A DNA stretch of 64,000 bases from Pristiophorus japonicus. Its lineage: Eukaryota. Positions 39,818 through 47,456 of this stretch are shown here, piece after piece (the first letter of the stretch is position 1; every line of letters begins with the position of its first letter). A program made the position numbers and the translations under genes. Location of the stretch: the NCBI RefSeq assembly GCF_044704955.1, contig NC_091984.1:146320001-146384000 (forward strand), given 5' to 3'. The notes beneath the pieces were generated by a model, which was given only the letters and a program-made list of their open reading frames with translations, was not told the origin of the DNA and ran no database searches.

Positions 39818-40178
39818 TGATAGATAATTCAAACTGGTTGCATTCAGACAGGCTGTGAAAATTCACAGACACCAAGTCAGAGCTGCTATGTGAGTGGGAG
39901 CATGTTGCATTAAGTCATCAATCAACTTGACATTTTAGGACTTTGGGTAGCGAGCCAATTAAAAGGTTAAAAGACGATTAATTAAGCCAATAAGGTCAAA
40001 GAAGGCGAGTTCTTTTCTGTAAATTGATCCAGGTATAAGTACAGCCATTTTGACTATGTGATATCAGAAGGACAAAGACCTGGCTTAAAGCCAAGAGCTT
40101 CTTACTGCTGCCAAAAATAAAGTGACATTAAAACTACAATCGGAGTTCGTATTTCATTGGAAATTAAGAGATCTAACA
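39818..40178 (+). repeat. ERV 5' LTR (361 bp)
   Basis: TGATAGAT...ATCTAACA terminal inverted repeat; two CCAAT boxes, TATAAG, AATAAA at 40116. Confidence 0.95.
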
Positions 40179-40182
40179 ATTT

Positions 40183-40200
40183 TGGTGTCACGAACAAGAT
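40183..40200 (+). other. Primer-binding site, tRNA-Ser(CGA)-like
   Basis: TGGTGTCACGAACAAGAT versus recalled tRNA-Ser(CGA) complement TGGCGTCACGAACAGGAT (2 mismatches). Confidence 0.7.
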
Positions 40201-40467
40201 CGCTGAGGGAAGAAACTGAATTTTGGACATCGGACCTACATACTGGGGTAAGGGCTCCTCTTTATAAAAGTCCTCAGTCAAAAGTCTAAATTCGCCTCTC
40301 CTTCTTCGTGATTCCAAAAGCCTCCGGTTTGCGAACCCTCCAGTTGGTAGTCGGTTCGAGGTCCCATAGACGTCTAAACTTCGGCGTTGTGTTAGTTAAT
40401 TAATCACCGACCTATTGATCGGCTAGAAAGCCTATGACTCGAGACTCCAGTAAAAAAAATCAGTATT

Positions 40468-42029
40468 ATGGCAGCAGGAGATAAGAGCAAAGAATTGCCT
40501 ACAACTGTTAAAGATGGGCAAGCACCACCTGAGGTTTCGCTAGATGAAATTCTCGAACAGTTGAAAGAATACATGGAGCAACAATTCAATTTATCTAAAA
40601 CCTATATTAAGATCGAACAAAAGTACGGAACCTCCAAAGGACAATGGTCCTTGGACGAGATTAAAAGGGTCTGGGGAAAAACGATCCGTATGAAAAATAA
40701 AGAGCGAACTAGATGGTCCCTAGCCGTTATGGGAACGATCCGAAACTGGAATGAAATTATAATGCGTTCCCAACCTGATCGAGAACTGACCAGTACAAAG
40801 GATCAATTGCAAGCTGTTTGTGCACAGCTGCGACAGAAAAAGCTTGAACTTGAAAAGCTGGAAGCGGAAGTTAAAGATCTTAAAGGTGAAATTAAAGAAT
40901 GGAAAAAATCATTAGGTCAAGAGACAGTAATAGGAAAAGGAAAATGTATCGGTCAATTCCCAGGGTACCCATGTTTGGATAAATTAAAAGCGCAAACCCC
41001 AAGACACGACCGAGGAATCGATACGAATTCTGAATCCTCCGACGATACAGGGTCGGAGGATGAAGAATTAGGGGTGCGCTTTGCCCCATTTAAAAAAAGA
41101 CGAGTTGTAGTCAAATCAGAAGAGACTGCGGATGAGGGCGGAACCAAAAAAACGAGGAAAAGGATGTACGAAAAATACTTGGTTCATGATCCGGCAGACC
41201 CAGAGAAAATTGATAAATGGTCCAAGGAATTGGCCAATCCAAAGAAAGGGGGAGTGAAAACGTGGGACCAATTGGACCGCTTAAGAAATATATATCAACT
41301 TCATCCCTGGGACGGAGTACAAATTTTGACCATAATGGTGCCAAAAACACAGGGAAGAAAATTGCACGACAAGGTAGAAGAAGCTTTGGGGCAGGATAAG
41401 CAAGAATTAGACACAGGGTGGGAGGTGATTAAACACTGGCTGCAAGCCTTCAGTCCAGCTAAGACAGACTGGGGAAAAATTGCAGCCTGCCAACAGAAAG
41501 GAACAGAGGAGGTCCTGGAGTATGACGAGCGGTTTAGATGCACGTGGCTGGAACATTCAGGTATGAATAATACGGATGAGGAAATGGATGAACAAGTGTT
41601 TGGACCCCTGAAAGCAGCTTTCGTGGCAGGTCTAAAGCCAGAACTGTCCAAAATGCTTAACGTAGTGTTACCGGACTGGGAAGGTCGAGGAACTACCTTT
41701 GCAGCATTGGTGGATCGATGTAACCAATTAGATCGGTATATGGGAGCTAAAGTCCGAGCTGTACAGAATATGGGATAGAAATCCCAGGATTCCGATAAAC
41801 AGTTAATGGGAAAATGACCCGGAAAATGTCATTATTGTGGGAAAGAAGGTCACTGAGCCAAGAAGTGCAGGGCAAAACAGAAAGGTCGTGGCTGGGGAAG
41901 AGGACGCAGCCAGGGATACATTCAGCCAACAAACCAGGCTTGTCACAAGCTAACGACCTCATAGAAGTGTTTAAGCGACTGACAATACAACAACAGAAGG
42001 AGTTACTTGGGATAGCAAAAAACAATTAG
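40468..42029 (+). pseudogene. gag: ERV gag: 436-codon open part, then in-frame stops and a single CCHC zinc knuckle
   Basis: MHR-like CQQKGTEEVLEYDERF, AFVAGLKPEL; CHYCGKEGH*AKKC at 41827-41868 in the same frame. Confidence 0.9.
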
Positions 42030-45000: not shown

Positions 45001-45465
45001 AGGACAAGTAGAACGAATGAATCGAACTCTGAAACAACAGCTTGCCAAATATCACCAAGAAGGAACATCATGGCCCCTGGCACTACCAATAGTGTTATGT
45101 AGCATTCGGGCAACCCCGAACAGAACTACAGGTCTAAGCCCATTTGAAATTATAACAGGAAGACCCATGTCGCTGCCAGGAACTATCGATTTACGGAAAG
45201 CTGATGTTCACTTAATGAGTGACACTTTGTTATCATACTGTCAGAACTTAACCAATGCTATTAGTTCTGTTTCCCGACAGGTATTGGCAGCTTGGGAGTC
45301 TGGGTGTATGTGAAAAAATTGCATAAAGAACCTTTGGGTGCCAAGTGGGAGGGACCTTATCAAGTGTTATTGACCACTCAGGCAGCTGTTAAAGTCCAAG
45401 GAAAGAAAGCCTGGATCCACGCTTCACACGTTAAACGAGCACCCATAACTGAAGCTGAAATCTAA
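42020..45465 (+). pseudogene. pol: ERV pro-pol (protease, RT, RNase H, integrase); two in-frame stops and one frameshift
   Basis: LLDTGA; LPQGFHNSP; QYVDDILL; FTDGSS; YTDSRY; H-x3-H...C-x2-[26 protein letters not shown]; stops at 44462 and 44966. Confidence 0.95.
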
Positions 45466-45489
45466 TAAGGACAATTACTTTTTGCCAAA

Positions 45490-46841
45490 ATATATAAATT
45501 TACTGTATTACTGATTGTAGGTATTCTAGGCATAGGCCTACTTCTTACTAGCCGACCCTCTGCACCAAAGGGAAATAGTAGTGTAGCAAGGGAATTACAT
45601 GTAAATACCTTTTTATATATGTCATACATTTATGGCAAACAAGGTAACATTTCTAGTTGTTGGGTGTGTGCGCATATTCCTATTCACTCAAAGGAAGGGA
45701 TTCCCTTGAGGCCAGTTCCTTGAATATCTCGGAAATGGCTGAGTGGATAATTAATCAAAACAAAACAGGCAATGCGTTTCAGGATCAGGAAAACTGGGCA
45801 CGTAAATGAAAGTCAGCAGGTTACAATCTGACTACCTTTGAAGGGGGATACCAACCGTGCTATAATAATTCCAAACGGCCCCCATTTTTTGTTGTCACTA
45901 ATACAACGGGAATAGGAAGACCCGGGGAATTGGTCTGTCTGATTATAAACATGAAAGGAGGCCAAAATATGGGGTATAGTAACTGCTCCCGGAATTATAA
46001 CATAATCAAGCCACGGAAGCGTCCAAGCTGGGCCGATGTGGGAATTCTTAACGTAATGGGGATTCTGAATAAAACAGATGGAAAAGCCTGGACAGGCCCC
46101 GGAGTGTTGCTGACAAAGAAACAGCTGACAGTCATTGCCTATAATGGCACCTATTGGGTCTGTGGCCACAAGGCCTACCCTTGGCTGCCCCAGAATTGGA
46201 CAGGATCCTGCTATTTAGCCTACATTGTGCCTTATATGTATCATATAAAGTCACTGTCGGAACATTTACACCGTCCTAAGAGAGCTTTCACAGAAACAGA
46301 GAGGTTCTTTGCCATTCTGATCCCCAATTATGGGATCGCCACACTGGCAAGGGAATCCATTAACATGGCATCGGTTGTGGAACGGGTAGCCAATGATACC
46401 TCAGAGGCCCGAGTTAAAATCAATGCAGAAATGGTAGCAATCAGCACAGTAGCCCTACAGAATAGACTGGCACTTGATTACATCCTGGCTGAAAAGGGAG
46501 GTACTTGCGCCCTACTCGGAACTGAGTGTTGCACATATATCCCAGATAGCTCCGAACAAATTACCCACTTAACGGAGCATATACAAAAGGAGGTAGAAAA
46601 ACTTAAGCAACCCCCATCATTCACTTTGTGGAGTGGAGCTACTGAATGGCTAGGTTCAATAGGAACTTCATTGGTAGAAGGTTTAATTATATTTGTTGTA
46701 ATTATTTTACTTTTATATTGTTTGCTTATGTTGATTAAATGTTGTTGTGACCAGGCGACTTTAGCTTCAGTCCCGCAGGTGAGACACCTTGCAGGTCCCA
46801 GCAGACCATCTGTACATGGCACAGAGGTATGTTATGCTTAA
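45490..46841 (+). pseudogene. env: ERV env, gamma-type; 5' part disrupted, 3' 303 codons open
   Basis: Hydrophobic signal, CWVC (45658-45669), furin site RPKR, ISD LQNRLALDYILAEKGG, CX6CC (CALLGTECC), TM helix. Confidence 0.93.
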
Positions 46842-47104
46842 GGGAAAGTTGTTTACTGGTTGAATTAAGATATTGATTTGGATTAAATTGGAATAAGGTT
46901 AATTAACCTACTAAAACCAGACTTCCATTGTGGCCACGATGGAATTCGGGTTGGTGTAAATTTGTGTCGAAGCTACTAGTGGCGAAACACATCAACAAAT
47001 TTTAGAAGGAGACACTATTAAAATCTATGAAATTATTTTGTAGAATGTTTAACCAGTGATAGCTGATGTTTTATGATTCAGTTTGTGAAATAATCAAAGG
47101 GGTG

Positions 47105-47456
47105 AATTCAAACAGGCTGCATTCAGACAGGCTGTGAAAATTCACAGACACCAAGTCAGAGATGCGACGTGAGTGGGAGCATGTTGCATTAAGTCATCAA
47201 TCAACTTGACATTTTAGGACTTTGTGTTGCGAGCCAATTGAAAGGTTAAAAGACTATTAATTGAGCCAATAAGGTCAAAGAAGCGAGTTCGTTTCTGTAA
47301 ATTGATCCAGGTATAAGTACAGCCATTTTGACCATGTGATATCAGAAGGACAAAGATTTGGCTTAAAGCCAAGAGCTTCTTACTGCTGCCAAAAATAAAG
47401 TGACATTAAAACTACAATCGGAGTTCGTATTTCATTAGAAATTAAGAGATCTAACA
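47105..47456 (+). repeat. ERV 3' LTR (first few bases deleted), preceded by polypurine tract AAAGGGG
   Basis: Aligns to the 5' LTR with about 15 substitutions plus 1 indel by manual count. Confidence 0.95.

Follow-up and report, generated by a model that had tools for sequence, protein, structure and literature searches.

We analysed a window of 64,000 nucleotides from the genome of the shark Pristiophorus japonicus (contig NC_091984.1, positions 146,320,001 to 146,384,000 of the forward strand), in which an endogenous retrovirus (ERV) occupies window positions 39818-47456. A preliminary description had proposed a full-structure ERV here, and its parts were all found, on the plus strand: long terminal repeat (LTR), primer binding site (PBS), gag, pro, pol, env, polypurine tract (PPT) and second LTR, framed by a target-site duplication (TSD). 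The element is a real, defective provirus, in which every gene is interrupted. The 5' LTR (39818-40178, 361 nt) runs from TG to CA and contains a TATA-like element at 40034 and AATAAA at 40116; the 3' LTR (47103-47456) measures 354 nt, and the duplicated ATATT stands at 39813-39817, inside an old LINE fragment, and at 47457-47461. Four nucleotides off the 5' LTR end, the PBS (40183-40200) pairs at 16 of 18 positions with the 3' terminus of a tRNA-Ser(CGA) gene that the host genome carries, which bears out the tRNA-Ser-like primer site described before. The PPT (47096-47102) is shortened, being longer in most other copies of the family. Between the two LTRs, 15 of 354 sites differ (Kimura two-parameter distance, K2P, 0.044); this agrees with the earlier count of sites, whereas the single indel counted then has become two, the second of which sits at the PPT/3' LTR boundary.

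The gag gene (40468-42029) starts with MAAGDK, without Met-Gly, and encodes a coiled-coil-like stretch, the capsid (CA) and a single zinc knuckle (41827-41868). It is followed in the -1 frame by pro-pol (42017-45465), which encodes protease (PR, with DTG at 42128), reverse transcriptase (RT, 42482-43294), tether, RNase H (43856-44329) and an integrase (IN) with an MLV-type C-terminus; the RT motifs PVWP..WRLTVDYR, IDMANGFWSVPL and QQYTWTRLPQGFHNSP lie within an open frame of 829 aa. The env gene (45469-46841) is gamma-type: the surface subunit (SU) has a CXXC motif (CWVC, 45658-45669), and beyond the RPKR furin site (46272-46283) the transmembrane subunit (TM) carries an immunosuppressive domain (ISD, 46455-46505), CX6CC (46506-46532) and a membrane anchor. 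The motifs that had been reported for RT, Gag and Env were thus recovered in the translated frames and by Pfam, and the Pfam E-values place the retroviral features far beyond chance (RVT_1 1.7e-31, RNase_H 1.1e-25, rve 3.2e-15, the GPY/F domain MLVIN_C, PF18697, at the IN C-terminus 5.2e-16, TLV_coat 1.3e-19). Gag had no convincing match in Pfam or PDB; in Atlas the values were 0.90-0.91 for unnamed chordate clusters and 0.86 for Gag_p30 clusters, which is a lead only. The Pfam search of the element gave no dUTPase match. Damage is spread over gag (stops at 41776, 41815 and 41854, frameshift near 41920), pol (stops at 44462 and 44966, deletion near 45290, close to the 3' end) and the SU part of env (frameshift near 45717, stop at 45807). 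A predicted protein of P. japonicus is 94% identical to the element over tether-RNase H, and among named Envs that of Heterodontus francisci is nearest.

The gag-pol junction

A point absent from the preliminary description is the arrangement by which pol is reached. The gag frame ends in GCA AAA AAC AAT TAG (42014-42029), and the protease follows in the -1 frame via the heptamer A AAA AAC (42017-42023), which is in the correct phase two codons upstream of the gag stop and is predicted to be the site of a -1 frameshift. A stem-loop predicted by folding (42031-42103) begins 7 nt 3' of the heptamer, so that all elements of such a signal are present: an in-phase X XXY YYZ heptamer, a short spacer, a predicted downstream structure, albeit a modest one, and an overlapping -1 open reading frame. 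Stop-codon readthrough is ruled out for this shark family, because a second gag-frame stop lies ten codons past the first and the protease is out of the gag frame. Class II retroviruses such as MMTV use A AAA AAC for -1 frameshifting between gag and pro. The element is predicted to work in the same way at its gag/pro boundary, although its Pol is unrelated to theirs in trees and, with pro and pol in one frame, a single shift would serve both.

The exact 24-base junction pattern has 1,809 matches in the shark genome, so the family comprises at least 1,809 copies, compared with 10 matches for a variant with a longer A-run. We examined 41 copies, namely the window copy, 20 chosen by RT and 20 chosen by env, four of them paralogs of one insertion. 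Of the 36 that were parsed at the junction, 31 keep an intact heptamer and 28 have a -1 frame without interruption as far as the protease DTG; in a single copy the gag frame gets to this DTG, and in 31 no Met precedes it. A pol in the -1 frame behind the heptamer and the predicted stem-loop is the norm of the family.

An in-frame stop separates gag and pol in six reference genomes (snakehead retrovirus, SnRV, and those labelled WDSV, SSSV-like, Xen, MLV and REV). In-frame TGA was also seen in two of four parsed own-genome loci of a neighbouring shark family, the next lineage out, and was read by eye in whale shark Rh_ty_ERV4 in the retrieved part of a published sequence file (PMC6001957). Closer to the element, the cod-like clade members L065 and Ga_mo_ERV4 have an in-frame TGA-CTA-G junction, whereas the cyprinid predicted proteins P0067, P0172 and P0054 look, at the protein level only, like products of both frames at an A-run junction in the same position. 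The cyprinid junction was not found in the first 400 characters of the long DNA lines in the supplement of Xu et al. (PMC6001957). It is very probable that the shark family uses -1 programmed frameshifting and that this derives from a readthrough junction. In the available excerpts of two reviews (PMC1224870, PMC13517186), recoding by frameshift is confined to the alpha, beta, delta and lenti groups, and translation strategy serves as a global marker, with readthrough in the gamma branch and frameshift in the beta branch. No account of a frameshifting fish or shark retrovirus was found in the literature searched, which was mostly open-access.

Three observations weigh against this interpretation of the junction. 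The stability of the stem-loop is modest (-38 kcal/mol and z -1.94 in a 100-nt window, with 7 of 200 shuffles equally stable; z -1.55 and -1.76 in shorter windows). The element has 0.0036 heptamers of this kind per base, so that about 0.07 would be expected in the 18-codon overlap. Finally, the copies are about 95% alike, and the conservation of their junction therefore shows inheritance, not selection.

Relationships of Pol, Gag and Env

Reference sequences came from IMG/VR, where an alignment served as query for the viral contigs. With the window RT as a single-protein query, the viral contigs returned no loci, the metagenome scan gave one relative (L065), and a search of longer proteins had no named exogenous virus among its matches. 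The reference labels WEHV, SSSV-like, Xen, MLV, BaEV-like and 'ERV-L-like' are those that we take to apply. L002 was recognised as SnRV from the corresponding row of a published alignment, and WDSV, FeLV, REV, GALV, ALV, MMTV, MPMV, JSRV and foamy were recognised from motif matches to other rows in the accessible part of it (PMC10435555). A quick RT tree held 62 rows; careful trees, from which redundant rows, two long branches and class II were dropped, held 38 (RT), 32 (tether+RNase H; whole Pol) and 28 rows (IN).

By BLAST, RT is about equally near to SnRV (41%, 213 bits) and to WDSV/WEHV (41-42%, 211-218 bits). Tether, RNase H and IN are much closer to class I than to SnRV: tether identity is 27% to SnRV and 37-45% to those class I references that match over the full length, and the corresponding figures for RNase H are 36% and 40-54%. 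Together with the MLVIN_C match, this upholds the earlier view of these domains as class I-like. In the trees, gar, alewife, carp and zebrafish sequences and cod-like ones fall with the element into one clade (RT 99/95, whole Pol 100/99), which was linked to published ERV names through shared motifs read by eye. Crown class I (gamma/epsilon) without this lineage was supported at 100/99 in the whole-Pol tree and the two were joined at 98/95, compared with 92/72 for the same sister grouping on RT alone. The position was repeated with a gypsy root (SH-aLRT, the approximate likelihood-ratio test, 98) and with class II included (96). Class II fell inside class I in the quick RT tree, which is probably a long-branch effect.

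Approximately unbiased (AU) tests rejected both nestings of the RT inside class I that were tried (p=0.002 and 0.007), and the preliminary placement of RT outside gamma/epsilon is thereby retained. A clade with SnRV was rejected on tether+RNase H (0.047) and IN (0.043), both marginally, and on whole Pol (0.01); membership of the SnRV or ERV-L/S groups, as suggested before, is not supported. The sister position was accepted for tether+RNase H (p=0.556), with a log-likelihood 1.3 above that of the free tree. Taken together, these alignments suggest that the fish and shark lineage is likely sister to crown class I. Because this one topology fits RT, tether+RNase H and the concatenate, a mosaic pol is not needed to account for the sequences. 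The RT motifs DYR and NGFW, which had been taken as class III-type markers, are common to foamy viruses and SnRV and therefore look ancestral rather than diagnostic. A report of a sister-to-class-I placement of this lineage was not found in the mostly open-access literature; zebrafish ERVs resembling a gamma and epsilon ancestor are mentioned, without detail, in the retrieved part of one paper (PMC8672886).

Several results pull in another direction. On RT alone, grouping with SnRV has an AU p of 0.12, and monophyly of the published clade Huo, although not the best tree, gives p=0.085 on whole Pol and p=0.059 on RT, so that this placement is rejected by neither; relatives of the element stand among clade Huo leaves in the published RT tree, of which only leaf order was available (PMC6001957). 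Sampling is thin, with 28-62 rows and few SnRV-like taxa, and the foamy and ERV-L branches were flagged as long. The lineage fell within class I in the free tether+RNase H tree, where the support was unstarred, and the tree of IN lacked resolution.

A second shark ERV family, present in the same genome (L089-L092) and among predicted proteins (P0019/P0176), matches a Mustelus protein at 72%. It branches between SnRV and the clade described here, and has an in-frame TGA junction and at most two zinc knuckles.

In a TM tree (LG+G4), shark and pike Envs form a group with the element to which the gamma and SSSV/Xen Envs do not belong; many long-branch warnings confine this tree to supporting the shark/fish Env group, not deep relations. 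The pairing of this Pol with this Env is thus probably not specific to sharks. The SnRV env gave no TM match, and the Gag CA matched class I Gags (E 2e-6 to 0.016) better than SnRV Gag (0.084).

The lineage itself is known from bony fish, where it is barely described. Le_oc_ERV2, Cy_ca_ERV4, Es_lu_ERV3 and Ga_mo_ERV4 (PMC6001957) and Eluc.ERVi.2, Mamb.ERVi.1 and Oste.ERVi.1 (PMC10435555) share its RT lineage by motif and tree, as far as the retrieved parts of these sources go, and a description of the genome features of the gar, carp, pike and cod members was not found in those parts. The published members in gar, carp, pike and cod rule out the chondrichthyan-only, shark-specific lineage that had been proposed. 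Relatives in the database are 52-65% identical to the element in RT; the nearest reaches 64% over 831 Pol columns, in a cluster that includes a common carp entry. The element differs from these relatives in its shark host, in its family of more than 1,800 copies and in its placement here as sister to class I rather than in clade Huo, and from the cod member also in its -1 heptamer. What is new is the predicted frameshift amid readthrough relatives and the likely sister-to-class-I position.

Compared with other known systems, the element has DYR/NGFW motifs, a non-myristoylated Gag and a single zinc knuckle in common with SnRV, which differs by its in-frame UAG junction, its much longer, non-matching env and its extra 3' open reading frames. 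Elephant shark CmiERV lineage I, from the retrieved part of PMC4422223, was compared alongside SnRV; the RT motifs of Ca_mi_ERV1 differ from those of the element. With XtERV-S, ERV-S and ERV-L, class III elements with a class I env (PMC8278194, seen in excerpt), it shares a Ser PBS, a 5-bp TSD, lack of myristoylation and a gamma-type env. XtERV-S, however, carries YIDD and a dUTPase, lacks a zinc knuckle and has an in-frame TGA, unlike the YVDD, the zinc knuckle and the MLV-type IN tail of the element, whose RT is only 34-36% identical to full-length ERV-L-like proteins. Gamma and epsilon retroviruses are alike to it in tether, RNase H, IN with GPY tail, CA and gamma-type Env, and unlike it in that its RT stands outside their crown and has DYR where theirs has DLR, its Gag lacks Met-Gly and its junction is -1 in place of readthrough. 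The combination of a class III-like RT with a gamma-type Env, a Ser PBS and a 5-bp TSD is already known.

Competing explanations

We favour, with a probability of roughly 0.6, the reading that the element is a defective provirus of a shark family of at least 1,809 copies, which belongs to a fish lineage sister to class I and makes Gag-Pol by a predicted -1 frameshift. The active virus would have been primed on tRNA-Ser; Gag would have been translated from genomic RNA, with ribosomes slipping -1 at the heptamer ahead of the stem-loop to yield Gag-Pol, and Env from a spliced RNA. The DYR/NGFW motifs and the non-myristoylated Gag would have been kept from an ancestor and would indicate neither a class III parent nor a crossover within pol, and the frameshift would be a derived replacement of the stop-readthrough junction of relatives. 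An ancient mosaic, in which an SnRV/clade Huo RT was combined with class I tether, RNase H and IN in an ancestor common to the shark and bony-fish members, could also explain the even RT identities, the nearness of the downstream domains to class I and the fact that these domains reject an SnRV grouping which RT alone tolerates; retroviruses are reported to have replaced RNase H/IN repeatedly (PMC7947760, retrieved in part). We nevertheless hold it to be unlikely, because the best RT tree already lies beside class I and tether+RNase H fits the same topology, so that no conflict between RT and the downstream domains is demonstrated, and a long SnRV branch in these domains depresses the SnRV identities. 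The SnRV/class III-like, mosaic interpretation given in the preliminary description thus keeps its RT outside gamma/epsilon, and the p=0.12 on RT still speaks for it, while its SnRV grouping fails on whole Pol and its mosaicism is not required.

An ordinary clade Huo ERV related to SnRV, with a gamma-type env and with its pull towards class I arising from rooting or long branches, appears improbable to us. Four of the fish relatives named above (Le_oc_ERV2, Cy_ca_ERV4, Es_lu_ERV3, Ga_mo_ERV4) have been placed in this clade (PMC6001957, seen in part), the monophyly test on whole Pol leaves room for it, and the non-myristoylated Gag with its coiled-coil-like stretch and one zinc knuckle matches the description of SnRV; SnRV-related Pol with gamma-type Env has also been reported from anamniotes (bioRxiv 2021.11.23.469661, available in part). 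The sister position was, however, obtained under three outgroup choices and the SnRV clade was rejected, while Gag CA is nearer to class I Gags and the SnRV env lacks a TM match. As for the junction, a founder defect or artefact, with a frameshifted master that spread in trans or a pol made from spliced RNA as in foamy viruses, seems highly improbable. A-runs are prone to indels, and the published translation of pike Es_lu_ERV3 continues uninterrupted from Gag into Pol (PMC6001957, seen in part). But a sizeable in-frame class is missing from the genome counts, most parsed copies offer no Met ahead of the protease active site, and the cyprinid proteins would fit an A-run junction at the same place. 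Beyond the preferred reading of the shark family, we tentatively propose a genus-level fish lineage sister to all gamma and epsilon retroviruses, which may have undergone at least two junction switches between readthrough (cod/herring) and -1 frameshift (shark and, judging from protein, cyprinids).

The family in its host genome and its meaning

Copies other than that of the window, for which a genome search had been proposed, are numerous. A DNA search with RT gave 1,471 candidates, the 40 that were scored being 97-100% identical, and open frames longer than 1,100 aa contain 7 of the 142 RT matches with a score. The earlier report of a 5-bp TSD applies to most of the family: of the 25 copies in which both ends could be called, 18 show an exact duplication of 5 bp, two (L027, L034) one of 4 bp and five none, and 16 of 22 independent insertions have exact 5 bp. 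Duplications of 5 bp are also made by some class I retroviruses and by lentiviruses. A 5-bp TSD alone is not diagnostic of class III, and neither TSD length nor PBS was accepted as a class marker. LTR divergence in 20 copies with exact TSD ranges from 0.011 to 0.070 with a median of 0.021, and the window insertion, as had been supposed, is not very recent but older than the typical copy. The dates are rate-dependent and weak: the median corresponds to about 47 My at a shark rate of 2.2e-10 and to about 5 My at the mammalian rate quoted in the same source (PMC4422223, retrieved in part), and the window copy would be about twice as old.

Most of env is missing in 10 of 21 RT-picked copies. The PBS, called in 34 copies, fits tRNA-Ser(CGA) in 27 and a tRNA-Ser(UGA)-type end better in seven, clearly in three and by a single base in four. 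All seven (L025, L027, L030, L033-L036) are env-deleted and form a subfamily with common deletion ends, in which a primer switch during intracellular spread is possible. A single broad burst may have spread the family, including its env-bearing and env-deleted subfamilies. The tRNA-Ser(CGA) 3'-end pattern matches one place in the genome and the second Ser-type end 75; of three of these 75 submitted to ARAGORN, one was called Ser(UGA), one His and one received no tRNA call.

The window also contains, as non-viral context, an immunoglobulin (Ig) light-chain V gene (62369-62923, plus strand) with a leader exon and a recombination signal sequence with a 12-bp spacer, whose heptamer is one base off the consensus. 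This gene has at least 40 paralogs, mostly at 143.5-148.6 Mb of contig C8. The 3' junction of the window insertion occurs 11 times, nine times on C8 (143.5-148 Mb) and twice on C1231, and in all 11 copies a close paralog of the V gene lies 15-16.4 kb downstream on the same strand. The provirus was therefore inserted once, and duplication along with an Ig light-chain unit raised it to at least 11 copies; the window insertion would thus have been copied passively after its arrival. The pair on C1231 could represent an alternative haplotype. Directly upstream of the provirus, a long inverted repeat (38734-39437; arms of 47+131 nt, 91-98% identity) probably consists of two opposed LINE fragments, and minisatellites with units of 44 nt and about 42 nt lie at 48373-48639 and 2578-3143. 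An open reading frame fragment of 364 aa (3662-4756) presumably resembles the C-terminal part of a Tx1/L1-type retrotransposon ORF2.

The insertion, present in at least 11 duplicated Ig light-chain units, provides a marker for ordering the duplications of these units. For the retroviruses, the tentatively proposed junction switches, if true, would mean that frameshifting arose independently of class II and that a deep taxonomic marker is broken. As both junction types would occur at one position in one lineage, the conversion of one recoding signal into the other could be tested with natural sequences. If the sister position to class I holds, clade Huo would be a grade, and the fish and shark lineage would offer a near outgroup for the ancestral traits of gamma and epsilon retroviruses, such as the DLR motif, myristoylation and TSD length.

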